DNA of 32,348 nt, from the IMG/VR virus record IMGVR_UViG_2537562189_000010; one strand, given 5' to 3'. Under the pieces are notes generated by a model. It was not told the DNA's origin and did not search any database. It saw nothing but the letters and a program-made list of their open reading frames with translations. Positions 8,389 to 29,082 of the stretch are shown here, in pieces (position 1 is the first letter of the stretch; each line of letters opens with the position of its first letter). A program made the translations under genes and the position numbers. This stretch comes from a virus. Lineage: Duplodnaviria > Heunggongvirae > Uroviricota > Caudoviricetes.

Positions 8389-10550
8389 TCATCCAGTTGC
8401 CCCGGCGTCATCGGGCTCTGCGTGTTGATTGTCAGATTGCCGAACGTCCGGCTGTTGTCGATACGGGTTGAGGTGTCCGTGCGTATCTGGTTGCGTATGC
8501 CTCCGGGTGGCAGCTCTGCGCTGATGCGGTTGCCTGCCAGTGCCGGGACGGCGGTTTCTGCAATCTGCGGAGGTACGGTGCTGCCTGTTGCGCCCCGCGT
8601 CATGGTGTTCACCTGCTCCGTGGGCTTCATGTCGATACTGATACCGGGGATTTTGTTCAGCTTTTCCGCAAGCCAGTTCCACGTCCGGTTAAACGAGTTT
8701 TTAATGACGTTCCATAAGTCCCCGAAGACGTTACCGATGATCCCCGCCATTTTCCGGAAGGATTCGACCGGGGCAGTCGGGTCAAATGCAGCCACCACGT
8801 CCTGCCACCCTCTGATAACGATGGCGAAGATGTCGACCAGGGTTCTGATCACGCTGATAACCACCTCCAGCGCGGGGGATATCAGGCTTACCGCTGCGGC
8901 CACCACGCGACCGCATGTTTCCCCGGCACGGGTGACGCTGTTCATCTGCCCCGTGGTCAGCTGAACCGGTGTGAACAGATCAGTGAAGGCGCCGAACAGG
9001 GTTTTTATGCCCTGCCATACCGGGGCCAGCGCACGGGCAATTTCACCGAACGCGGCAGTCACCGGGCTCATGGCGTCCAGTGCGCCGGTAAAACCATCAA
9101 TAAAGCCGCGAATAAAGGCTTTGATGGGCTGCCAGAACTTAATGGCCACCACCACCAGAGCGGCGATGGCGGCGGCAACCAGGAGGACCGGGGCGCTCAT
9201 GGTCAGAAACGACACGCCCGCCAGACGCGCGGCAAGACTGGTGGCAATGATGGCGCTGCGTACTTTTGTGAGTGCGAGCGTGTACAGACTCCAGACTGCC
9301 CTGGCGCCCTTTATGATGGCCTTATGGCCTTCCATGATGAAGCTGAACACACCCAGCACGATGTTCGTGACCGCACCGGCTGCGCCCAGCGCCAGCATGG
9401 TCAGCGTGATGTAACCCAGCCAGCGGGCGATGTTCGGGAACATGTTCAGCCAGCGCACGAACGTCGCGCCGATATCGGCAAAACGGCCAGCCAGTGGTGC
9501 GAGAATGGGGTAGAGGGCGTTACCGATGGCGGCCCGGATGTTGTAGAAGGAGGCCACAAGGCGGTCCCACGGGTCGGTCATGGCTTCCGCCATTTCCGTG
9601 GCACGCTTCATGCCGTCATTACGCCCCAGCGCTGATATGCTCCGGTTAAGCATTTCCTGCTGTCCCCAGAGTTTTTTAATCACGTCCGCGCCACTGCCGA
9701 AGGCGTCATCCAGCGCCTGTTGTGCCGCCACGTTGCCCTCGATGTTCCTGCCGAACCTCGCCTGCAGACGGTCGAGGATGTCACCCATGGGTAAAATCTT
9801 CCCGGTGGCATCGACAAAACTCATCCCCATTTTTTGTGCGGCAGCGGGGGCACTGCGCAGGAACTCCTCATAGATGCCTGATGCCTCGGTACCCATGGTC
9901 CGTGACAGGGTGCCCAGTATGGCAAACTGCTCTGCCATGCTGACGCCAAAATCCGCGCCCGCGTTTTTGGTGCCCTCAATAAGCTCCTGCATGGTGCTCA
10001 TTTCCACGCCGAACTGCTGAACCATCCACGCGGTTTTACCTGCCAGATCTTCAGCAAACCCCACGGCACCCATGGCAGAAAACTCACTGCGGAAACGGGC
10101 ACCCATGGCGGCAAGGTAGCCGCTCGCCTCTTCGCTGCTGACGCGGGCAGCCACAGCCAGGGTGCTGGTTGCTGCCGTCACACGGGGTAAATCCCCGTCG
10201 CTCAGCCCGTCCAGTGCGCCGCGAATATGCCATGCGGAACGGATGATCTCCGTGGAGGACTGACCGAATGCGGTCCCCAGTTTCATGGCCTGCGTGGTGA
10301 GGGCGGTCAGCGCCTGCGCCCCGACGCCTTTGGCCTCAAGCTCGCCCAGCGCCTTCTGCATCTCCCACGCCGGATCCATCGCGGCGCGGATACCTTCAGC
10401 CACGCCCCACAGTCCGGCCACACCCACACCGATACGCGCGAACGCGCCCTGCGAGCGTTCGGCGAATCCCGTCACGGATTCCTGAACCTGCCGCAGCGGG
10501 CGGGTAAGCTGGTCTGTCAGATTGATAATGAAATCCAGCTGGCTGGCCAT
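8364..10550 (-). CDS. tail tape measure protein
   Basis: 728 aa, Ala/Gly-rich with internal hydrophobic stretches (ITLTMLALGAAGAVTNIVLGVF..., VSFLTMSAPVLLVAAAIAALVVVAI...); preceded by a chaperone gene with a frameshift site. Confidence 0.7.
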   Translation of the reverse strand: MASQLDFIINLTDQLTRPLRQVQESVTGFAERSQGAFARIGVGVAGLWGVAEGIRAAMDPAWEMQKALGELEAKGVGAQALTALTTQAMKLGTAFGQSSTEIIRSAWHIRGALDGLSDGDLPRVTAATSTLAVAARVSSEEASGYLAAMGARFRSEFSAMGAVGFAEDLAGKTAWMVQQFGVEMSTMQELIEGTKNAGADFGVSMAEQFAILGTLSRTMGTEASGIYEEFLRSAPAAAQKMGMSFVDATGKILPMGDILDRLQARFGRNIEGNVAAQQALDDAFGSGADVIKKLWGQQEMLNRSISALGRNDGMKRATEMAEAMTDPWDRLVASFYNIRAAIGNALYPILAPLAGRFADIGATFVRWLNMFPNIARWLGYITLTMLALGAAGAVTNIVLGVFSFIMEGHKAIIKGARAVWSLYTLALTKVRSAIIATSLAARLAGVSFLTMSAPVLLVAAAIAALVVVAIKFWQPIKAFIRGFIDGFTGALDAMSPVTAAFGEIARALAPVWQGIKTLFGAFTDLFTPVQLTTGQMNSVTRAGETCGRVVAAAVSLISPALEVVISVIRTLVDIFAIVIRGWQDVVAAFDPTAPVESFRKMAGIIGNVFGDLWNVIKNSFNRTWNWLAEKLNKIPGISIDMKPTEQVNTMTRGATGSTVPPQIAETAVPALAGNRISAELPPGGIRNQIRTDTSTRIDNSRTFGNLTINTQSPMTPGQLDEWTELYAG

Positions 10551-10739
10551 GTCACCTTCCGTTAAATGCGATCGCTATACCTTCAGCGGTCTTGTTGGCG
10601 CGGGTACGGGCAAAATATTCATCCAGCCAGATGGCACGGGCGATGCTCTCTTCGTCGTCCGGCTCTCCGGGGAGGTAGTGACGCCGCAATGCCAGATACT
10701 GCTCAAGGGGATTGCGGCGGATGCTTTCGACCCGCGCGG

Positions 10740-11015
10740 TCAGTTTTTTAACTCAATCTCCAGTTTCGGGGAGTAAACCTCGTTAATCTTCTCGACGATC
10801 TGCATCTCACAGCCCGGATAACGCGCAATCAGGTCAGCCAGTGCGTCGCGGCTGGCAGGCGTCACGATGCGGTTAAGATAGGTGCTCATCGGCGCCACCT
10901 TGTTGGTCATCGTGATTTCGTTGATGAGGTTGTTAAATGCCGTTTTGTTCGGTTCAAAGCTCAGGGTTACGCCCGCAACGGACAGGATGATGGTGCCGGT
11001 GTTCTTCGTGGTCAT
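10740..11015 (-). CDS. tail assembly chaperone (P2 gpE / lambda gpG-like), with a predicted frameshift-extended form reaching about 10552
   Basis: 91 aa immediately upstream of the tape measure; slippery heptamer at its stop; open -1 frame fills the 189-nt gap to the tape measure. Confidence 0.55.
   Translation of the reverse strand: MTTKNTGTIILSVAGVTLSFEPNKTAFNNLINEITMTNKVAPMSTYLNRIVTPASRDALADLIARYPGCEMQIVEKINEVYSPKLEIELKN
10743..10749 (-). other. candidate -1 programmed frameshift heptamer A_AAA_AAC at the 3' end of the tail chaperone gene
   Basis: Minus strand reads GAG TTA AAA AAC TGA at the chaperone stop; the -1 frame stays open for about 62 codons and ends at a TGA just before the tape measure ATG (about 10552). 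Confidence 0.55.
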
Positions 11016-11305
11016 TGCAGTTTCTCCGTGTTTCGTATGGTTTCCACCAGGCTGTTATGCCTGGCGGCGCATTCGGTGTAGCGGCTCGTGAGGGTTCGCA
11101 GTGCCGCATCAAAATCAGCGCCAGTCGGGCCTGCCAGTCTCGGCAGTGTCTTCGGGCATTCCGTCAGCTGGTTTTCCTGCCAGGGTACGTTCAGCGGCTT
11201 CAGCACGGGCGTTGAACAGCCGGACGTAATCATCAGTAGCGCACACATTGCGGAATACCGGGCGGACGGTTTCCGTGTGAATAACGCGTTCAGTGTGAAT
11301 TTCAT
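11012..11305 (-). CDS. Rz1-like o-spanin lipoprotein
   Basis: 97 aa, N-terminal signal with lipobox (..LLMITSGC..), overlapping the 3' part of the Rz-like gene in another frame and extending beyond it, as with P2 lysB/lysC. Confidence 0.6.
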   Translation of the reverse strand: MKFTLNALFTRKPSARYSAMCALLMITSGCSTPVLKPLNVPWQENQLTECPKTLPRLAGPTGADFDAALRTLTSRYTECAARHNSLVETIRNTEKLQ

Positions 11306-11501
11306 TGCCCTTTAACGCCTCCAGCCGTTTTTCCAGTATGCGGGCGGACTGCTGCCCGGCTTCTGTCACCGCACGTCGCGTGGCTTCCATGGCTTCCTGT
11401 TCGGCAAGCGCCACCCTGGCGTCATGCCAGTCATGGGCCAGCCAGCCTGCCCACATGGCGGCAAAGAGGATCACCAGGCAGCCCGCCAGCTGTTTCATCA
11501 T
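11115..11501 (-). CDS. Rz-like i-spanin
   Basis: 128 aa with an N-terminal transmembrane segment (LAGCLVILFAAMWAGWLA), a charged helical periplasmic part, and the embedded Rz1-like frame. Confidence 0.6.
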   Translation of the reverse strand: MMKQLAGCLVILFAAMWAGWLAHDWHDARVALAEQEAMEATRRAVTEAGQQSARILEKRLEALKGNEIHTERVIHTETVRPVFRNVCATDDYVRLFNARAEAAERTLAGKPADGMPEDTAETGRPDWR

Positions 11502-11836
11502 TTCACCCCGTTGTGCTCAAGGCTGAAATGATTGCCGTCTGCCCGGCTGAAGCGTCCGCCCCATGTGCCGCCGATGGATTCCCAGTATTCCCCCAGCGGC
11601 CTGTAGGCGTCGGTGTCGGTCTGGTATTCGCCGTTAATAAACAGGTTGAAGTCCACCGCGAGGCGCAGGGTGTGAAGGCTGTTGCGGATGCCTTTTCCGG
11701 TTTTCGCATTCAGTGCTGCCTGCTCCGGCGTGCGGTATGCCTCACCGAAGGTCAGGCGATAGCCGTGCTCCTGCGCCCAGTGAATAAGGTCGGCAATCAT
11801 GACGGCAAACAGCTGTTGTTTTTCGCTCAGTTTCAT
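11498..11836 (-). CDS. endolysin, peptidase M15 / VanY-like (L-alanyl-D-glutamate peptidase type)
   Basis: 112 aa with SLHTLRLAVDFNLF and DGNHFSLEH, resembling the zinc-binding H..D...H signature of M15 cell-wall peptidases; sits in the lysis cassette. Confidence 0.65.
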   Translation of the reverse strand: MKLSEKQQLFAVMIADLIHWAQEHGYRLTFGEAYRTPEQAALNAKTGKGIRNSLHTLRLAVDFNLFINGEYQTDTDAYRPLGEYWESIGGTWGGRFSRADGNHFSLEHNGVK

Positions 11837-12588
11837 CAGTCACTCCTCTGTTCCGTCCCCGTAAGGCGCGCCTGTGCCACGCTGAAATAGTGGGCGTTCA
11901 GTTCAATACCCGTAAAACGGCAGCCCCGGCGAAGGGCGGCCACGCCCGTGGTGCCGGACCCCATAAACGGATCGAGGATCAGCCCTCCGGGTTCACACAC
12001 GCGCACAAGCTCATCCATCAACGATTCCGGTTTACCTGTCGGGTGCTGTTTCTCCTGTGGGCGTGTGTGGTGCGTGGTGCAGCCGTCGAACGGCCCGGAA
12101 GGGGATTTGCCCAGCGCGCCTTTACTGCCCCAGACCACATATTCGCACTGGTGACGAAAATAACCGGTATGCGGTGTTCTTGAGGCCCGTCCCTTGTTCC
12201 ATGCCACGATCCCCCGCCAGGTAAAGCCGGCGGCCTGGAATGCGTCCGTCAGCGCGGGCAACTGCCGCCAGTCGGTGAAGACCAGGGCGTAACCACCGGG
12301 TCGTACCGTGCGCCATGCCTGTGTCATCCACAGATGCGTCCAGTATTCCCATGAACGGGCGTCCATGTTCTCGCCTTCGAAGCCTTCAAAGCGGTGAAGA
12401 TCTTCATCGTTGATGTATTTGGCGTGGCTGCCCTGGCATGTCCGCCCCGCCTTGTGTGTGGCACCTGAACTGTATGGCGGGTCTGTGATGAGCGCGTCCA
12501 CACTGTTTTCCGGCAGCATCCGCAGAACGTCATGCGCCTGCGCGTGATACAGGCTCAGGGAAGGCGAAATGTAAGGCTTATGGGTCAT
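11836..12588 (-). CDS. orphan DNA methyltransferase, beta-class (probably N6-adenine)
   Basis: 250 aa; catalytic motif IV ALITDPPYSSG precedes AdoMet motif I ILDPFMGSGTTGVAA; no restriction endonuclease gene adjacent. Confidence 0.85.
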   Translation of the reverse strand: MTHKPYISPSLSLYHAQAHDVLRMLPENSVDALITDPPYSSGATHKAGRTCQGSHAKYINDEDLHRFEGFEGENMDARSWEYWTHLWMTQAWRTVRPGGYALVFTDWRQLPALTDAFQAAGFTWRGIVAWNKGRASRTPHTGYFRHQCEYVVWGSKGALGKSPSGPFDGCTTHHTRPQEKQHPTGKPESLMDELVRVCEPGGLILDPFMGSGTTGVAALRRGCRFTGIELNAHYFSVAQARLTGTEQRSD

Positions 12589-12883
12589 TTCTGCGTTCCT
12601 TCTGCTTCAGGTAGCGGTCTGCCAGACGGCAAAAGCATTCTTCAATAAAGGCACTGCCCATAATGCCCAGCGCGCACGCCAGACCGACCACAACCAGTTC
12701 CGGCATATCCGGAAATTTAAACAGCGGAATGGCGGCAACCGGCGCCACGGCAGAGCCCATAATCATTCGCCCGATAAGCAGACGGGCTGTGATGCGATCG
12801 CGGCTCACCATGAGACGCCCCAGCCCGATGGCGGCACCGATGATAATCAGTTTTGCCAGGAGTGAAGTCTGACCGTCCGGCAT
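12578..12883 (-). CDS. holin (three predicted transmembrane segments)
   Basis: 101 aa, hydrophobic segments LLAKLIIIGAAIGLG, MIMGSAVAPVAAIPLF, LVVVGLACALGIMGSAFI with a charged C-terminus; directly upstream of the methyltransferase and endolysin. Confidence 0.6.
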   Translation of the reverse strand: MPDGQTSLLAKLIIIGAAIGLGRLMVSRDRITARLLIGRMIMGSAVAPVAAIPLFKFPDMPELVVVGLACALGIMGSAFIEECFCRLADRYLKQKERRNDP

Positions 12884-12887
12884 GGCA

Positions 12888-13379
12888 TCACCCCTTCAGA
12901 TCGCGGGTGTCACGGGCTGACAGGTAGGGCACGCCGTCAATGCTGATAAAGTCCGGGCTTGTGACCATGAACTTGATTTTTTTCGTGGTCTTTCCGGCTT
13001 CGCCTGCGCTGATGTTCACCACGTCCGACAACATGGGGACGCAGCCGAATACCTCGATTTTTTCCTCCTCGCTGCCGTTGTTGGCATAAAAGAGAAAATC
13101 CTTTTCAGGAATGGCACGCCATGACCCCGCAGAGCGGGCCACAGCACCAAACTTTTTAAAGTTCTGCGCGTCGACTTCCACCTCCACATCGGCAGAAACG
13201 GAACCACGGGTATAACCGTTCGGCACGCCGCGTGTCTGTGCCACGGCGCTGTTGTCGGTGATGGTGACGGTGGCGCTTTCCACGTGGATCATGATCCCGT
13301 CGTAGTTGATATCAAACGCGCCGCCGCTGATACGTTCATTTCCGGCCATGTCAGATCTCCAGTGCTGTGTCGAGTTCAA
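12888..13379 (-). CDS. putative tail tube protein; probable start at Met11 (about 13349)
   Basis: About 153-163 aa immediately after the sheath candidate; the sheath-tube pair is typical for contractile tails; no diagnostic motif. Confidence 0.45.
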   Translation of the reverse strand: MNSTQHWRSDMAGNERISGGAFDINYDGIMIHVESATVTITDNSAVAQTRGVPNGYTRGSVSADVEVEVDAQNFKKFGAVARSAGSWRAIPEKDFLFYANNGSEEEKIEVFGCVPMLSDVVNISAGEAGKTTKKIKFMVTSPDFISIDGVPYLSARDTRDLKG

Positions 13380-14496
13380 TACTTACGCCAATGGCTTTTG
13401 CGCTCTCGTAGGGGCGTACCACAATGTAAATCTGCACGTGTGTACTGCTGGTCCAGACGATGGTGATATCCCCGTCCTGTGGCGGTTTAACCTCGCCGGG
13501 GAACGGTACGCCGTTAATCTCTGTGGCGAGCGCCATTTCACGCAGCGTGCGGCTGAAATATGTCTGGCTGGCGGCAATGCTGCCCGGTGTGCTGTTGAGC
13601 GCGCGATCCGCAAGGCGGGCAATGGCACGCAGACGTACACGGCGGGAGACCTTATCCACCACGCGCACGTTTTCGATGACCTGGTAATCGCCCCCCTCCA
13701 CATCAAGGGTGCGTCCGTCTGACCAGTAGAGCCCGTCGAAATCGTGATACCACATGGGCACGCTGAAGCGTTTGCCTTCCAGCGAGCGTAGCGTGGCCAG
13801 CTCAAGGGGCTGTTTCTTGCCGTCCTGCGGGATCTCATCGTTACCCATCGCCACCAGAGCACCGGTTGCCACGCGTGCCGGGCTGTCCGCAACGGTGACA
13901 GAAGGATTACAGAGACGGCCCGCCAGTACGCCGGGCTCATTTCCCCATAAGCGGGGAACCACCATCACGCCAGGTGCTGCCACGCCGTCCTGCATGGCAC
14001 TGATGCGGGTGACGTATGCCGCCCATGCCTCATCCCTGCCCGGTCCGGCCACGCACAGCATGAACCAGACAAAACGGCCATAAGCGGACTGAAGCAGGGC
14101 GCGGGTTTCGGTGGCGCGGTTAACGGCATCTTTAGCCGTGATGTCAATGGCAATCACCACGCCTTCGGCAGAAGCAATGGTCTGCGCTTTTTTCACCGCG
14201 TCCACCCATGCGGCGTTAGCGTCGCCGCCCTCCGGTGTCGGGGGTTTGGGTTCAGACAGAACGTGAACATAGGCAAACCAGTTCTGGCCACCGTTGGCGA
14301 TTGCGGCGGTAAGCGTGGATTTAAGCAGGCTTTCATCCGGTCCCAGCACGTCGTCCAGGTCGGTCTCAGGGGAGACGGAAAGGGTGTTACCTGTGTTCTT
14401 TTTGCCATAGCCCACAAAAAGCAGCGTGCGCTCCACTTCACGGGTGGCACCGTTGAAACGGTTCTGATGGCTTACGGTTACATTCGGCCAGCTCAC
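13351..14496 (-). CDS. putative tail sheath protein
   Basis: 381 aa between the tail completion genes and the tube candidate; size and position fit a sheath (P2 FI is about 396 aa). Confidence 0.45.
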   Translation of the reverse strand: MSWPNVTVSHQNRFNGATREVERTLLFVGYGKKNTGNTLSVSPETDLDDVLGPDESLLKSTLTAAIANGGQNWFAYVHVLSEPKPPTPEGGDANAAWVDAVKKAQTIASAEGVVIAIDITAKDAVNRATETRALLQSAYGRFVWFMLCVAGPGRDEAWAAYVTRISAMQDGVAAPGVMVVPRLWGNEPGVLAGRLCNPSVTVADSPARVATGALVAMGNDEIPQDGKKQPLELATLRSLEGKRFSVPMWYHDFDGLYWSDGRTLDVEGGDYQVIENVRVVDKVSRRVRLRAIARLADRALNSTPGSIAASQTYFSRTLREMALATEINGVPFPGEVKPPQDGDITIVWTSSTHVQIYIVVRPYESAKAIGVSIELDTALEI

Positions 14497-14507
14497 GGTG
14501 TGACTCC

Positions 14508-15218
14508 TTATCTGATATCCTGTGCGTCAACGTCCAGGCCGTAGCCCATTGCGTTCATCTGGCGTGCCAGGATGTGTGAAAATTCTTCGTTTGTTACCCC
14601 CAGAAAGACGCGCGACGGAAGGGTAATGGTCCATGTCCTGGCCTTCTGCTGACGTGGTCCGGCGATAATCTGATCCTCCATAACGGTGATCAGCAACCCG
14701 GCCTGCGCCCGCGAAAGCGTTAACAGGTATTTCATGGATGCTTTCCGCCAGCGCCCCTTCTGACGTACCTTAAAGCCCAGCTCCCGCAGTCGTTTTGCCT
14801 GTCGGCGGGTGGCGGTCTGCCCGCTCTGGTCCTGACCGCTGAAGCTGTCAGCACTGACCCGGATTTCTGCGCCGTTGTGGTGAACCCAGCCCACGGCACC
14901 GGCACTGATGCGGCTCCTGCCACTGGTGTGATTGCCGTTACGGAAATAAACCTTTACGGCATCCTGTCCGGGCATCTCACGGACCGCCAGAAGACGCGGC
15001 AGCTTTCTGAACATTTTCCCCTTGCCGCGTTTCCGGGGTGCCCATGCTGTGCCGTCCGGCGCGGTCTGATCGCGCTGATGGCGTCTGGCTGCGGCGATAA
15101 TGCCGTGCCGGGCAATACGCCATAACAGGCGACGGCGTTTTTTCGGGGGCAGATCCAGCGACTGAAGCATCGCCTGCGCTTCTGCCAGCTGCTGCGGGTT
15201 CAGCTGGCCGCTTATCAT
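14508..15218 (-). CDS. virion morphogenesis / tail completion protein (P2 gpS-like)
   Basis: 236 aa, very basic, start overlaps the stop of the upstream gene; position after gpL- and gpR-like genes. Confidence 0.45.
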   Translation of the reverse strand: MISGQLNPQQLAEAQAMLQSLDLPPKKRRRLLWRIARHGIIAAARRHQRDQTAPDGTAWAPRKRGKGKMFRKLPRLLAVREMPGQDAVKVYFRNGNHTSGRSRISAGAVGWVHHNGAEIRVSADSFSGQDQSGQTATRRQAKRLRELGFKVRQKGRWRKASMKYLLTLSRAQAGLLITVMEDQIIAGPRQQKARTWTITLPSRVFLGVTNEEFSHILARQMNAMGYGLDVDAQDIR

Positions 15219-15688
15219 TCGCGGCTCCTGCTGACAAACAGATCCATGGTTTCCGCCGTCCAGATTTCAGGGTTAACCAGTGTCCAGCGTTTCCCCCTGT
15301 ACGGAACGGGGCCGTCCTCCTGCACCCGGATGATCAGCGGGTCAGCCAGTCCCACCGTGATGTCGAGAAGGCACGAGTCCTCATCGTTAAACTGCGGGTC
15401 GACGTTCACATCCTCCGGGCGGAATTCCTCCCTCAGCGGGTCCGCGTGCTCTTCCAGCCAGGCCATGACCAGCGCGTAAACCAGCCCCGGTGAGTATTTG
15501 CGGAACGGGAAGTTATCCCATGCGATCACGCCGGTGTACGTCATCACGCCCATGCGGATCTGGTCGTTACCCAGTGCCTTCTGACTTCGGATAAGTTGCG
15601 CGTCTTCCTGACTGCTCATGAAGAACTGCATGGCGTCAGACGGCAGATTTTCGGTAATGAAGGCGGTCAGGCTTTCCAGCTGGTTCAT
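15215..15688 (-). CDS. tail completion protein (P2 gpR-like)
   Basis: 157 aa, coupled to both neighbours; size close to P2 gpR. Confidence 0.4.
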   Translation of the reverse strand: MNQLESLTAFITENLPSDAMQFFMSSQEDAQLIRSQKALGNDQIRMGVMTYTGVIAWDNFPFRKYSPGLVYALVMAWLEEHADPLREEFRPEDVNVDPQFNDEDSCLLDITVGLADPLIIRVQEDGPVPYRGKRWTLVNPEIWTAETMDLFVSRSRE

Positions 15689-23593: not shown

Positions 23594-26109
23594 TGTGGCG
23601 CCTCCGTATTCGGTGCGGGGGTGATATCAATGCGGCGGGTGCTGTCGTTCCAGTGCGCGGTGCGCCCGTCAGCCAGGCGCACGCGGGCACCGTGCCGGAC
23701 GGAAACGACGGCGCTTTCATGCAGCTGCACGCCCAGCGCATCAAGCTCGCGGGTGATTTGTGCGGTGATGTGTGGCTCAGCGGTCAGTGCGACACTCACG
23801 CGAACGCCGTCAGCGGGCGCACTGATGCCGCCGTTTTTCACGGTTTCCGTGTCAGGTGGCGGGTTTTTCAGCTGCCTGGTGAGTTGTTTTCGCTCTGTGG
23901 GGGTCAGTGACCTTAACCATTCACCCAAATCACCTTCAGGCAGGGTAAGTCGCTGCTCCCTGCGTTCGTCCGGCTGCCTTTCTGGCGGGTCGTTTATGGT
24001 CAGATTCTGGTCAGGGGGACAGTTATTGCCACGAGTCCAAGGTGCGGCAAAGCCGCACTCAACGTCAAAACCCTCGTCCGTGCGGTCTTCGTTTTCCGGC
24101 TTACGTCTGACCAGTTTCCAGGTGTCCGGGTGGGTGCATATGGTGTAGCGCTCCCCGAGTGACGGGGCGCGGACGCCGTAAATACGTTGCGGGAATTCGC
24201 CGTAGTCGTTGGCCTCTTCGGCAGTTTCGTATGCGGTGCGGACCAGGTACGTGTTGCGGGGAATGAGCACACCACCCTGGCGGGTGATATAGGTGGCAAA
24301 ACATCCCACGTCGGCGGCGGCCAGTATGGCGTCAATGTCGTCATGGTCCAGACGCTGCGGGGCAGCCGGGTTACGGGCCATCTGCCCGGCAAGGCGGCGG
24401 AGTTCGCGCCATACCTGGCGGGGCGGGATACCGAAGAACTGGAACTGGCGGATGCGGTGAAGGGCAGCCCAGCCGATGGCGTTCTCCACGGTTTCGGCCA
24501 TGGTTTTGCCTGATTCCTTATCGACGTAAGGTTTGCCGGTTTTCGGGTCATTCCCCATGAAGGCGCTGGCGTCCAGGTTCTTACCGATATAGGTCGCGAT
24601 ATAGCTCGCCGGTGTGCCTTTTGCCGGGTCGATTTTTTCGCATTTAAAACGCGGGGAGATATCATCACCCAGCTCTGCGCGGTCCTCCCTGATGGCGGCG
24701 TTGCGCATGATTTCAGTGATACGGGCTTCGTTTTCCGGGCTGGTGAATACCAGCATGTGCCAGTGCGGTGTACCGTCGTGGTGGGGCTCCACTGTGCGCA
24801 CGCCGTACCAGCCCAGCCCGGCCTTGTTGATGGCCCTGCGGACGGCGGCGAAAAAGCGGTAAACCAGATAATCACTGGCATCACGTACCGTTGCTCCGCA
24901 GTATTTCGGGTTCAGGCTGCCGTCATCGTTCACGCTGTGAAAACGGGAAGGGGCTGTGACGGTGACGAAAAACGCCAGGTCGCCGCGTGCTTCGGCGACC
25001 TGCTCCATTCCCCGGACGCAGGCCATCATCTCGTTACGGCGGTTACGCGGATTAGAGAGACCTGCCCAGTAGATATCCTCAAGGCTGAACCGTTCTCCTT
25101 CTTCGTTCTCGATGTCCCAGGCCTTCAGAAAATCGCGGGTGCGCTGGCGTTTTTCGCGCCAGTCCAGTAACGCTTCATGGCTGATATATACCGACGTCTT
25201 ACGTGACACCAGGCCTGCGGCGCGTAACAGCTCTTCACGCCAGATGTCCCGGAGGTGTCTTAACTGACTGTTCCACCATGTCGCACAGGAAAGGCGCATG
25301 ACCGCACCCGGCACCTGTTCCGGGTCGGGGGCGGTGCGGCGGTCGGGCCTGATTTCCAGCGACGGCCAGCAGGGTGGCGTGATACCCAGTTTTAACGCCA
25401 TGTGTGCCAGTGGCTGGTAGGTCAGTAACCAGGTGAACAGGTCATCGTCACCCCTGCCGGTCTTTTCGATGACCTCATCACATGCGCGCTCCAGTGCGGT
25501 GGAAAACGCGGTGGCGGTCAGGGTGGCAAGGCGCTGGATTTCGTCACGGCTCAGCTGCGGCAGCATAAGCAGTTCATCCAGCCGTTCGCGGGCGGCGGTG
25601 GCCTTAAAGGCCGGGGTGGCAAAGCGTTCATTCACACGGGCGATACGTTTCAGGCGGGCACGCAGCCCGTGACGAACGAAGTTATCCGCCGCGTATGCGC
25701 TGTTGTTCTTAAGCCCTTCCCGGCGTGCGCTCTCCTGTTTGCGGCTCAGGCGTGCCAGGTCCCGGATGAGCGGACCGGCAAGAAACGGCGGCAGGGCGCG
25801 CAGCTCCGCCATGGCTTCAGATACCAGTGTGGGCGGATTTTCGCGTTTGTGTCGCGCCAGTTTTTCCAGTCTGATCCGACGCTCTTCGTCGTGGTAAAGA
25901 TGCGAATTAATTCGCTTCCCTTCGTCTGTGGTTGTCAGAAAGGCGACGGTTTCTTCATCCAGTCTGGCGTCAGTGCGAATGTCCTCGTTGATGTAGCTCT
26001 GAATGGCCTGGCGTAATGCAGTTGGCTGTGCCCTGCCGAACGTTTCAGGATCGATAACCGGCAGCGGGGCGTTCCACGGGTACGCCAGTTGTGCGTTATG
26101 GTCGCTCAT
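23590..26109 (-). CDS. A: rolling-circle replication initiator, HUH endonuclease (P2 gpA-like)
   Basis: About 839 aa from the first ATG (ORF track 23590..26118); contains ...GTPHWHMLVF..., the HUH metal-binding motif of P2 A / phiX174 A-type initiators. Confidence 0.85.
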   Translation of the reverse strand: MSDHNAQLAYPWNAPLPVIDPETFGRAQPTALRQAIQSYINEDIRTDARLDEETVAFLTTTDEGKRINSHLYHDEERRIRLEKLARHKRENPPTLVSEAMAELRALPPFLAGPLIRDLARLSRKQESARREGLKNNSAYAADNFVRHGLRARLKRIARVNERFATPAFKATAARERLDELLMLPQLSRDEIQRLATLTATAFSTALERACDEVIEKTGRGDDDLFTWLLTYQPLAHMALKLGITPPCWPSLEIRPDRRTAPDPEQVPGAVMRLSCATWWNSQLRHLRDIWREELLRAAGLVSRKTSVYISHEALLDWREKRQRTRDFLKAWDIENEEGERFSLEDIYWAGLSNPRNRRNEMMACVRGMEQVAEARGDLAFFVTVTAPSRFHSVNDDGSLNPKYCGATVRDASDYLVYRFFAAVRRAINKAGLGWYGVRTVEPHHDGTPHWHMLVFTSPENEARITEIMRNAAIREDRAELGDDISPRFKCEKIDPAKGTPASYIATYIGKNLDASAFMGNDPKTGKPYVDKESGKTMAETVENAIGWAALHRIRQFQFFGIPPRQVWRELRRLAGQMARNPAAPQRLDHDDIDAILAAADVGCFATYITRQGGVLIPRNTYLVRTAYETAEEANDYGEFPQRIYGVRAPSLGERYTICTHPDTWKLVRRKPENEDRTDEGFDVECGFAAPWTRGNNCPPDQNLTINDPPERQPDERREQRLTLPEGDLGEWLRSLTPTERKQLTRQLKNPPPDTETVKNGGISAPADGVRVSVALTAEPHITAQITRELDALGVQLHESAVVSVRHGARVRLADGRTAHWNDSTRRIDITPAPNTEAPQ

Positions 26110-26522
26110 GCGTCGCACTCCCCGGCAGTTGCCGCCTGAAACGCCGCGCGGTACAGCACGAGAAGGCGCTGGTATTCACCGATAAAGTCTTCTGCGGTGT
26201 ATATGCCTTTCACGGCCACGCTGTGCGTTGTCATTTCCAGAACCAGCGCCATTTCTGACGACGACCAGCTGATGGCGGTGCTGTCGGTTCCGTTGATGTG
26301 AAATAAACCAAAGCCATCACCATCGCCTTTTACGTCCACGCGGTAACGGTCGTCAACGGTGAAGGAGAAATCCCCGTATGTGGTGACGCGTCCGGCGGCC
26401 TGTTTACAGGCGCGGCGGTAATAGTCGTGCCAGTCGTTCAGGCGGGAAGCCAGCCGGGGATCCACTGCCCACATCCAGTTAAAAAAATCCTGAATATCTG
26501 AAAGTCCCTTAACGCTCTTCAT
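26106..26522 (-). CDS. hypothetical protein, 138 aa, directly upstream of and coupled to the replication gene
   Basis: ATG preceded by GGAGG; its stop overlaps the replication gene ATG; its ribosome-binding site lies at the boundary of the tandem repeat. Confidence 0.5.
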   Translation of the reverse strand: MKSVKGLSDIQDFFNWMWAVDPRLASRLNDWHDYYRRACKQAAGRVTTYGDFSFTVDDRYRVDVKGDGDGFGLFHINGTDSTAISWSSSEMALVLEMTTHSVAVKGIYTAEDFIGEYQRLLVLYRAAFQAATAGECDA

Positions 26523-26590
26523 GAGAACCTCCGGTAACAGACGTGCGGAAGCCTCCCGCGCACGTGTGCGGGATGGCTTCAGGATGTTGT

Positions 26591-26818
26591 TTAGTGGTGG
26601 TGTTGCTGGTTGATAAGGTCCTGCAGTTCTGCCAGGTCTTCGGCCAGATAGCTGAAGACTGCCGCGTAATACCCGGCAGCGATACCGTCGTTAAGTCGGT
26701 GTAATACGTTTGACTGCATGATGAAGGAGACAGATGCAGCCCGATGGAGTCTGCGGTTGATTTCTGTGCGGATGTGAAGACGCTCAGCGCGGGCGCGCTG
26801 TTGTTTGCGGTTTGCCAT
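26591..26818 (-). CDS. 75-aa Arg-rich protein, copy 1 (unknown function; candidate RNA-controlled effector)
   Basis: Identical in protein sequence to copy 2 despite synonymous nucleotide changes; AAGAGG Shine-Dalgarno; basic N-terminus, acidic C-terminus ending in HHH. Confidence 0.7.
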   Translation of the reverse strand: MANRKQQRARAERLHIRTEINRRLHRAASVSFIMQSNVLHRLNDGIAAGYYAAVFSYLAEDLAELQDLINQQHHH

Positions 26819-27132
26819 GGTGTTTGGCCTCTTGTAGTAAGTTGTGAAAACTCACCAACCCGAGGCGGTAATCTCAGGGTGGCGAGACGTACAGGGTTAC
26901 CACAACCGGCTACAAGAGATCCCGGCCCGACCGAAGTCGGCCCCGTACGCCCCGCCATAATTCTGACGCAAAAAAGACGTGGCGATACAGTACGCACAAA
27001 AAAACCGCTGGCGCGGTTGTGCGCTCTTGTAGTCGGCGGGGTGGTAATCCCGGCACCCGTTTTATGAGGTGCGGGAAAACTGTAACCCGACCAGGCGAAC
27101 GCTGGCAAGCGGTTTTTTTGTGTGTGCATGGA
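26819..27132 (-). ncRNA. structured leader / antisense-type regulatory RNA region, copy 1 (c4/CI-like architecture)
   Basis: CTCTTGTAG (about 26829-26837) and again (about 27024-27032) are each the reverse complement of CTACAAGAG (about 26911-26919); GGTAA/TTACC inner pairing; minus-strand hairpin plus T7 terminator; UUCG-loop hairpin. Confidence 0.5.
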
Positions 27133-27202
27133 GAACGAACCTCCGGTAACAGACGTGCGGAAGCCTCCCGCGCACGGGTGCGGGATGGCTTCAGGATGTT
27201 GT

Positions 27203-27430
27203 TTAGTGGTGGTGTTGCTGGTTGATAAGGTCCTGCAGTTCTGCCAGGTCTTCGGCCAGATAGCTGAAGACTGCCGCGTAATACCCGGCAGCGATACCGT
27301 CGTTAAGTCGGTGTAATACGTTTGACTGCATGATGAAGGAGACAGATGCAGCCCGATGGAGTCTGCGGTTGATTTCAGTCCGGATGTGAAGACGCTCAGC
27401 GCGGGCGCGCTGTTGCTTGCGGTTTGCCAT
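27203..27430 (-). CDS. 75-aa Arg-rich protein, copy 2
   Basis: Same protein as copy 1; the only nucleotide differences are AAA/AAG (Lys), CGC/CGG (Arg) and ACA/ACT (Thr). Confidence 0.7.
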   Translation of the reverse strand: MANRKQQRARAERLHIRTEINRRLHRAASVSFIMQSNVLHRLNDGIAAGYYAAVFSYLAEDLAELQDLINQQHHH

Positions 27431-27745
27431 GGTGTGGCCTCTTGTGTAGTAAGTTTTGAAAACTCACCATCCAGAGGTTGCAATTCTGGGTGGTGAGACG
27501 TACAGGGTTGCAACCACCGGCTACACAAGACCCCGGCCCGACCGAAGTCGGCCCTGTACGCCCCACCATAATTCTGACGCGAAAAAGATGTGACGATGCG
27601 GTACGCACAAAAAAACCGCTGGCGCGGTTGTGCGCTTGTGTAGTCAGCGGGGGTTGCAATCCCGGCACCCGTTTTATGAGGTGCGGGAAAACTGTAACCC
27701 GACCAGGCGAACGCTGGCAAGCGGTTTTTTTGTGTGTGCATGTTC
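27431..27745 (-). ncRNA. structured leader / antisense-type regulatory RNA region, copy 2
   Basis: Segments CTTGTGTAG...GGTTGCAAT (about 27441-27485 and 27635-27660) are both complementary to GGTTGCAACC...CTACACAAG (about 27507-27529); the Shine-Dalgarno of the ORF lies inside the downstream segment; terminator (about 27609-27635) and UUCG hairpin (about 27535-27554) on the minus strand. Confidence 0.5.
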
Positions 27746-28592: not shown

Positions 28593-28807
28593 GCCCCTCT
28601 GATGGCCGTTACTTCGCGAACGGTACTGGCAATCGCGGTGATTTGTGTTCCGTCAGCCAGATGGATGTAGAGATAATCAGCGTCTGACGGGCACGGCGTG
28701 GTCGTTGTGATCAAATGACTTTCCACCATGAACTCGTGGCCCACGGCATCGGTGAAACGCGTCAGCATGGTGGCGGTAAATATGCTGTTCATCGACCTGC
28801 CCCTCAC
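28550..28807 (-). CDS. hypothetical early protein, 85 aa
   Basis: ORF in the co-directional early operon; no motif recognised. Confidence 0.4.
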   Translation of the reverse strand: MRGRSMNSIFTATMLTRFTDAVGHEFMVESHLITTTTPCPSDADYLYIHLADGTQITAIASTVREVTAIRGAWKSETQAHGELRP

Positions 28808-29082
28808 GCTGAAAACTGGCCGGACTGTGTCCGGAGTTCTGCCAGTTCGCGCTCGAGGCGCAGGTTTTTCATATAGAGTTCACTGATGGTCTGTTTTGCT
28901 GTCACCATTGCCATGCTTTGCATTTGCAGGGCCATGTAGGTGGCAAAATGCTTGTCTTTATCTATTTCTGATATTCTTTCATCCAGTACATTGGTTATTT
29001 CAGTCAGCGTTTTTTGCGTAAATTCAATATGCGCCGGGTCGGTAAATAGTTTGTTTATTTCTGTAGGTGTATTGATGCTCAT
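28804..29082 (-). CDS. hypothetical early protein, 92 aa
   Basis: ORF in the early operon; predicted helical/coiled C-terminus (...LRLERELAELRTQ). Confidence 0.4.
   Translation of the reverse strand: MSINTPTEINKLFTDPAHIEFTQKTLTEITNVLDERISEIDKDKHFATYMALQMQSMAMVTAKQTISELYMKNLRLERELAELRTQSGQFSA

Follow-up and report, generated by a model that had tools for sequence, protein, structure and literature searches.

Two prophage-encoded adenine methyltransferases of the beta class, M.EcoGII and phiOS31_p25, are non-specific and block the action of many restriction enzymes; M.EcoGII is silent in the lysogen, and growth was slower when it was expressed constitutively (PMC5778455, PMC7556043). The methyltransferase genes of phiP27 and of Serratia phage OS31 lie upstream of holin and endolysin genes (PMC5778455, PMC7556043). 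Methyltransferases that occupy the mom slot, such as Hia5, are almost non-specific (PMC3299994), and in Burkholderia phage KS5 the genes gp21 and gp20 form a pair of Com and a methyltransferase (PMC3091744). Here we describe an orphan beta-class DNA methyltransferase gene that sits inside the lysis cassette of a prophage in a 32,348-nucleotide (nt) stretch of viral DNA (IMG/VR record IMGVR_UViG_2537562189_000010, hereafter the window, at its full length). We favor, at a probability of roughly 0.7, the interpretation that its product is an adenine methyltransferase that counters restriction, expressed late and coupled in translation to the lysis genes of a P2-like (Peduoviridae, Irrigatiovirus-related) Escherichia coli prophage.

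The assignment of the protein to the beta class is supported by its family, motifs and predicted fold. The sequence matches the PF01555 (N6_N4_Mtase) profile with a score of 97.9 bits (E=1.1e-27) relative to a gathering cut-off of 26.7 bits, covering profile positions 1-220 of 221, and also matches phrog_67, annotated 'DNA methyltransferase' (E=4e-70), and the PADLOC type II methyltransferase model MTase_II (E=2e-61). Motif IV, DPPY, occupies residues 36-39 (within TDPPYSSG, 35-42) and motif I, FMGSGTT, residues 208-214 (within DPFMGSGTT, 206-214); with motif IV N-terminal to motif I, the protein displays the circular permutation typical of the beta class. In an alignment of the window protein with 22 homologs of 50-72% identity, D36, P37, P38, Y39, S40, S41, G42, K186, P187, D206, P207, F208, G210 and S211 are invariant in all 23 sequences, and the catalytic and cofactor motifs are thus not degenerate. 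The AlphaFold2 model, with a predicted local distance difference test score (pLDDT) of 83 and a predicted template modeling score (pTM) of 0.83, has a Rossmann-like methyltransferase fold in line with the solved members, and the top Foldseek matches in the PDB are all beta-class DNA methyltransferases at a probability of 1.00 (CcrM, M.BceJIV, M1.HpyAVI, M.MboIIA and M.RsrI). An earlier note, made from the sequence alone, had called a 250-residue beta-class methyltransferase with DPPY before FMGSGTT; the open reading frame (ORF), the motif positions, the profile match and the fold all agree with that call.

Given DPPY rather than SPPY at motif IV, the most likely target base would be the N6 position of adenine rather than N4 of cytosine. 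Beta-class N4-cytosine enzymes typically carry S/T-PP-Y/F at this position, and adenine enzymes D/N-PP-Y/F/W. Cytosine N4 methylation, which we consider improbable, draws on the fact that PF01555 spans both activities and on structural neighbors that include the rotifer N4CMT (ranked second) and M.PvuII; however, DPPY is invariant in the family, and JGI annotates the homologs as adenine-specific, an annotation that is a prediction only.

The methyltransferase gene is fused to its neighbors at both ends. Its ATG (12588-12586) lies 11 nt inside the holin gene, whose TAA stop occupies 12578-12580, while its TGA and the endolysin ATG share base 11836 (TGATG). The earlier note's placement between holin and endolysin, overlapping both, is therefore borne out, with overlaps of 11 nt and one base, respectively. 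The gene is part of an uninterrupted same-strand run that reads sheath, tube, holin, methyltransferase, endolysin, spanin, chaperone and tape measure. We propose that it was spliced into the holin-endolysin junction of this late tail/lysis operon and would probably be transcribed only with it. Translation would occur by coupling, as we infer from the gene layout (Table 1): the ATG within the holin gene stands behind AAGGAA, and the methyltransferase gene in turn would provide the GAGGAG site and the stop-start overlap for the endolysin. The lysogen would then contain no enzyme, its production being limited to the closing stage of the lytic cycle, so that replicated phage DNA could be methylated before or during packaging and the progeny could resist restriction in the next host. 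The late timing and the anti-restriction role are suggested by the gene order and by the relatives of the protein.

Table 1. Features of the methyltransferase gene and the surrounding lysis cassette (window coordinates).
Feature	Position	Strand	Basis
Orphan beta-class DNA methyltransferase (probably N6-adenine), 250 residues, ATG start	11836..12588	-	PF01555, phrog_67, PADLOC MTase_II, motifs, fold
Holin (Phage_holin_3_2), 101 residues	12578..12883	-	PF04550 E=1.2e-19; phrog_175; 69% identical to SI7 holin
M15-family peptidase endolysin	11498..11836	-	PF13539 E=3.5e-10; 87% identical to SI7 endolysin
Rz-like inner-membrane spanin	11115..11501	-	phrog_1152 E=5.5e-31
Rz1/LysC-like outer-membrane lipoprotein spanin, partly overlapping Rz	11012..11305	-	phrog_2425, phrog_456; weak PF23793 LysC; lipobox-like SGCS
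Shine-Dalgarno-like AAGGAA, 7 nt before the methyltransferase ATG, within the 3' codons of holin	12596..12601	-	Sequence reading
GAGGAG Shine-Dalgarno for endolysin, 6 nt before the ATG at 11836, within the C-terminal codons of the methyltransferase, whose tail TGTEQRSD is not conserved among homologs	11843..11848	-	Sequence reading
First 52 nt of the methyltransferase ORF, kept in sibling prophages as holin-endolysin spacer	12537..12588	-	blastn and alignment against L173, L179

The scarcity of expression signals around the gene is consistent with this arrangement. In a scan of 10500-15500, no minus-strand match to a sigma-70-type promoter or intrinsic terminator was found within or next to the cassette genes; the sole minus-strand promoter-like match falls within the tail tube gene, ~700 nt upstream, and shuffled sequence yields at least as many matches. 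No Com gene stands before the methyltransferase, the upstream gene being the holin, and no ORF there has a CxxC...CxxC pattern. The absence of a promoter, a terminator or Com next to the gene thus argues for probable transcription with the late operon combined with translational coupling. By analogy with Mu mom, we looked for unusual RNA structure at the holin/methyltransferase junction and observed none (z=-0.49). The P2 Ogr-type late promoter element TGT-N12-ACA occurs five times in the window, with seven occurrences expected by chance. One such palindrome, at 13013-13030, falls within the tube gene, ~135 nt before the start of holin, and cannot be called a promoter element because the window count is below chance.

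The window is a P2-like prophage; through its tail, head, replication (gpA), Cox, repressor and integrase genes it resembles 12 complete E. coli chromosomes, with 97-98% identity over 25 kb. A copy of the prophage that is 98% identical, in E. coli JNEC-KY172, is placed between serS and dmsA, and the nearest named phages are the Salmonella phages SI7, SW3 and SW5 (Peduoviridae, Irrigatiovirus). In the window as in SI7, the lysis cassette (holin, endolysin, Rz and Rz1; window 10552-13379, minus strand) separates the tail tube gene from the genes for the tail assembly chaperone and the tape measure. This position is unlike that in P2, where the lysis genes stand after the head completion genes.

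The methyltransferase is solitary, as the earlier note had reported for the window. Those larger unassigned ORFs that were compared with Pfam, NCBIfam, PHROGs and PADLOC gave no restriction-endonuclease or defense match, several ORFs of less than ~120 residues having been left unscanned, and no restriction enzyme is annotated within 12 kb on either side of the JNEC-KY172 copy. The only large ORF of unknown role, 26509..27741 (410 residues), belongs to the Ash/Rha regulator group. A type II restriction-modification system is not supported: the neighbors are holin and endolysin, and no cognate endonuclease appeared among the ORFs scanned.

This 410-residue ORF is one of two overlapping early-region ORFs (window 26106-27741, minus strand) that Pfam, NCBIfam and PADLOC leave unmatched. 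The resemblance to Ash/Rha-type phage regulators is confined to its C-terminal half, the first ~200 residues matching nothing; the other member of the pair, of 138 residues, corresponds to phrog_3237, of unknown function. In the closest E. coli prophage, to which the window was aligned only up to 25000, the corresponding place is annotated with 'derepression protein / ash pseudogene / SANT-Myb' genes, and the segment seems to stand in their stead. A further ORF of 92 residues (window 28804-29082, minus strand) has matches to the candidate defense proteins PDC-M64B (E=5e-4) and PDC-M64C (E=3e-3) that are too weak to interpret.

The methyltransferase gene is accessory, given that related phages share the cassette without it. 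SI7 has the same gene order, but its holin gene overlaps the endolysin gene directly, as it does in IMG/VR locus L175; SW3 and SW5 carry holin and then endolysin with no methyltransferase between them. The 73% nucleotide match between the window and SI7 ends exactly at base 11836, and 18 further E. coli prophages give an SI7-like partial match that ends at the endolysin start. Closer siblings without the gene are L173 (IMGVR_UViG_2579778804_000007), L179 (E. coli O22:H8 strain 154) and a prophage in strain Z1323MEC0001, in which the holin is 98-99% and the endolysin 97% identical to those of the window. Between the two, these siblings retain a spacer of 50 nt that corresponds to the start of the methyltransferase ORF (Table 1), differs from the window by an in-frame 6 nt and ends in AGGAGATACCCC-ATG. 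In two chromosomes, those of strain 154 (L179, NZ_CP067426.1 4812007-4818507) and Z1323MEC0001 (H81, NZ_CP148318.1 around 4472225), two prophages are present, one sibling with and the other without the gene.

We lean toward the view that these siblings arose by secondary deletion rather than preserving the state before insertion. Deletion is favored because the retained 52 nt encode residues in register with the N terminus of the family (L13 and Y14), because more distant relatives have no spacer at all, and because the difference between spacer and window is an in-frame 6 nt. A parental methyltransferase allele with the 3' end of the sibling spacer, as deletion would predict, was not found in the viral contigs, in which the known sibling contig was the only relevant match. 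We rejected CAGGAGATACCCCATGA as a lineage marker: this 17-mer combines a generic ribosome-binding site with an ATG and occurs exactly in 14 unrelated viral contigs (L180-L194) before different genes, and such junction strings are no lineage markers. In either case, the methyltransferase gene is gained and lost as a unit without harm to the lysis cassette.

The earlier note had also described the gene as a moron-type insertion. Classical morons come with a promoter and a terminator of their own and often stand out in base composition. The insertion part of the description stands, since the gene is absent from the same position in SI7, SW3, SW5, L175, L173 and L179, but the moron part fits only loosely, in that no minus-strand promoter or terminator match lies next to the gene and its G+C content is not distinct. 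The G+C fraction is 0.59-0.63 within the gene and 0.55-0.62 in its flanks, with no compositional break; across the whole scanned stretch of 9500-15000 it is ~0.55-0.67. We also looked at the flanks for direct or inverted repeats, as a mobile cassette would have, and found only short, chance-level ones. Together, the overlaps, the lack of own signals and of repeats and the even G+C indicate that the gene is no self-contained cassette but an integrated member of the operon: an accessory gene built into it, rather than a moron of the classical type that brings a promoter. In its essentials, the earlier interpretation is supported.

The distribution of the gene bears on two further explanations, both of which we consider very unlikely. 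In one, methylation does not counter restriction but serves the phage's own biology, by acting on when genes are expressed, on replication or on signals for packaging. The gene does sit in a morphogenesis/lysis operon, and some phage methyltransferases have such a role, as in P1, in which Dam methylation is linked to pac cleavage. However, the near-identical siblings and the SI7-like phages that lack the gene keep all of its neighbors intact, so the methyltransferase cannot be required for packaging or lysis, and the family hops between unrelated phage types and positions. In the other, the gene is a passenger of little current function that is being lost, as the deletion-like remnants in the sibling prophages (the first 52 nt only) and the diverged N terminus of the protein, with its G16 to A change, might suggest. 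Against this, the ORF is intact with all catalytic and S-adenosylmethionine-binding residues conserved, the window shares the gene with each of the 12 matching E. coli prophages (~98-99% nucleotide identity over the 4-kb region), the 100%-identical protein cluster has 280 member sequences, and the ribosome-binding sites are well placed at both junctions.

The wider family comprises more than 7,700 database matches and is common in phages, with 1,595 phage records. The closest relatives (72-74% identity) come from Escherichia phage Chuche and many E. coli viral contigs. In these, as well as in a Yersinia prophage with a 67% homolog, a Com zinc-ribbon gene (PF10122) overlaps the methyltransferase gene from upstream, near hok/gef at the prophage end, and Com is likewise paired with the methyltransferase in Stenotrophomonas phage Smp131 and in KS5. 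In Chuche and the Yersinia prophage, the com-methyltransferase pair is directly preceded by a hok/mok-like gene (L003 4429-4569; L009 3462-3611), and three tandem Hok/Gef toxin genes flank the JNEC-KY172 prophage just outside its left end (L002 10760-11845, NZ_AP045168.1). A second lysis-cassette setting is that of a 60% Salmonella homolog (P0011), whose gene is flanked by those for a P21-type holin and a lysozyme, in a Mu-like prophage with GemA and Mor. Because the Com-linked group resembles the window protein more closely than P0011 does, the family has probably entered the lysis cassette at least twice. A 54% homolog (L149) lies between a lysozyme gene and an ORF that is Rz-like by eye only, with no Pfam match, and in L079 and L084 the methyltransferase gene comes just after a GH108 endolysin gene. 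Across the 146 loci surveyed (~100 distinct contexts), we rejected the notion that the family is always tied to lysis genes, which are neighbors in only a handful of the distinct contexts; the association is recurrent but no rule. The Com-paired relatives are kept under late or tightly gated control, in keeping with the favored interpretation.

These settings raise the possibility, unlikely in our view but one to be taken seriously, that the enzyme has relaxed specificity or none, as a functional analogue of Mu Mom, Hia5 or M.EcoGII in which embedding in the lysis operon replaces the Com gate. Since broad methylation harms the host, expression would on this account be confined to the doomed cell. 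It would be a sharper version of the favored explanation and not a contradiction of it. The closest homologs are Com-gated, like mom, and the methyltransferases tested from the Com/mom slot are almost non-specific (PMC3299994); the prophage enzymes M.EcoGII and phiOS31_p25 are non-specific, and M.EcoGII is costly when constitutive (PMC5778455, PMC7556043). The window protein is small, with only ~25-30 residues from motif VIII to the HPTGKP motif, the part that holds the target-recognition domain in beta-class enzymes, and placement in the lysis cassette probably arose independently in the P2-like and the Mu-like prophage. However, Hia5 and B3 ORF48 are unrelated alpha-class enzymes, phiP27 L24 (M.EcoGII-type) is similar only at the level of motifs, and small beta-class enzymes can be specific, as are M1.HpyAVI and M.BceJIV (GTWWAC); in addition, the position of the BPP-1 homolog, described below, argues against a general toxicity of the family. 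A broader form of the idea is that the 250-residue subfamily represents a second compact lineage of broad-specificity, host-toxic, Mom-like adenine methyltransferases, confined interchangeably by a Com gate (in some P2-like phages) or by splicing between holin and endolysin (in this prophage and, independently, in the Salmonella Mu-like one); we regard this as doubtful and put it forward only tentatively.

Several observations weigh against the late, anti-restriction interpretation that we favor. The N-terminal 20 residues of the protein depart from the family consensus, including the change of G16 to A at a position that is at least 90% conserved, and full activity is for this reason assumed. 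Prediction of the target by homology failed, with the best solved or characterized relatives at most 26% identical. The protein falls far below the NCBIfam equivalog cut-offs for CcrM (NF050803, 86 bits relative to 830) and YhdJ (NF008572, 61 bits relative to 292), and the literature on the RefSeq accession, on M.EcoGIX and on the ST131 methylome held nothing applicable to the target. Most neighbors of family members are non-lysis genes, among them invertase, DUF1804, tail sheath, primase and terminase, and Bpm of Bordetella phage BPP-1, a 51% homolog, is encoded just after cro and before primase, among early genes. Finally, the sibling prophages manage without the gene.

Orphan methyltransferases are among the commonest phage counter-defenses, so one more changes little, and the gene described here is a neat but ordinary phage accessory gene. 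It does provide a clean natural case of an accessory gene set seamlessly into an essential operon, both borrowing and supplying ribosome-binding sites. Natural near-isogenic prophages, some with the gene and others lacking it (two of the latter share a chromosome with a carrier copy), make the anti-restriction hypothesis directly testable. If the protein were a compact, 250-residue non-specific adenine methyltransferase, it would be a useful reagent, like Hia5 and M.EcoGII for chromatin footprinting.

Compared with known systems, the window protein shares its fold and motif order with CcrM (GANTC), M.BceJIV (GTWWAC), M1.HpyAVI, M.MboIIA and M.RsrI (Foldseek E=1e-17 to 1e-12, template modeling scores of 0.6-0.75), and the HPTxKP and DPFxGSG motifs align between them. 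The solved beta-class enzymes are, however, only 19-26% identical to it and their recognition loops differ, so no target can be transferred from them. M.EcoGII, phiP27 L24, OS31 p25 and Aeromonas ARM81ld p56 are, like the window protein, beta-class, prophage-borne and orphan, with a proposed role in broad anti-restriction. Unlike it, they have ~350 residues with a central domain that the window protein lacks, and their genes precede the lysis cassette whereas the window gene lies inside it; non-specificity has been demonstrated for this type, although for phiP27 L24 it is deduced by homology. We rejected membership of the M.EcoGII type, as phiP27 L24 aligns with the window protein only in two short motif segments (22/56 and 25/95 identities). 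A relationship to Hia5, Hin1523 and Nma1821 was rejected as well, these being alpha-class (Dam-like) enzymes unrelated in sequence, as was one to B3 ORF48, which is unrelated to the window protein. None of them is close in sequence; the M.EcoGII-type and mom-slot precedents illustrate a possible way of working and not identity. In the com-mom system of Mu, a late, host-harmful modification that counters restriction is gated to the dying cell, and Com is likewise the gate used by the window protein's closest homologs (PMC3299994), although Mom itself, unlike the window protein, is no methyltransferase. The Com-preceded methyltransferases of P2-like phages (Chuche CDS0013/0014, KS5 gp21/gp20 and Smp131 orf5/orf4) belong to the same family as the window protein, which is 73% identical to that of Chuche and 48% to that of Smp131; all are carried by Peduoviridae, solitary and without a restriction partner. 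They differ in that the Com-linked forms carry an N-terminal extension of 13-18 residues that the window protein lacks, and in that their genes occupy slots of their own (near ogr/att with hok, after the portal gene, or between tail fiber and sheath), whereas the window copy lacks Com and is built into the junction of holin and endolysin. This contrast suggests that strict late gating matters for the family, which, if so, would hint at relaxed specificity.

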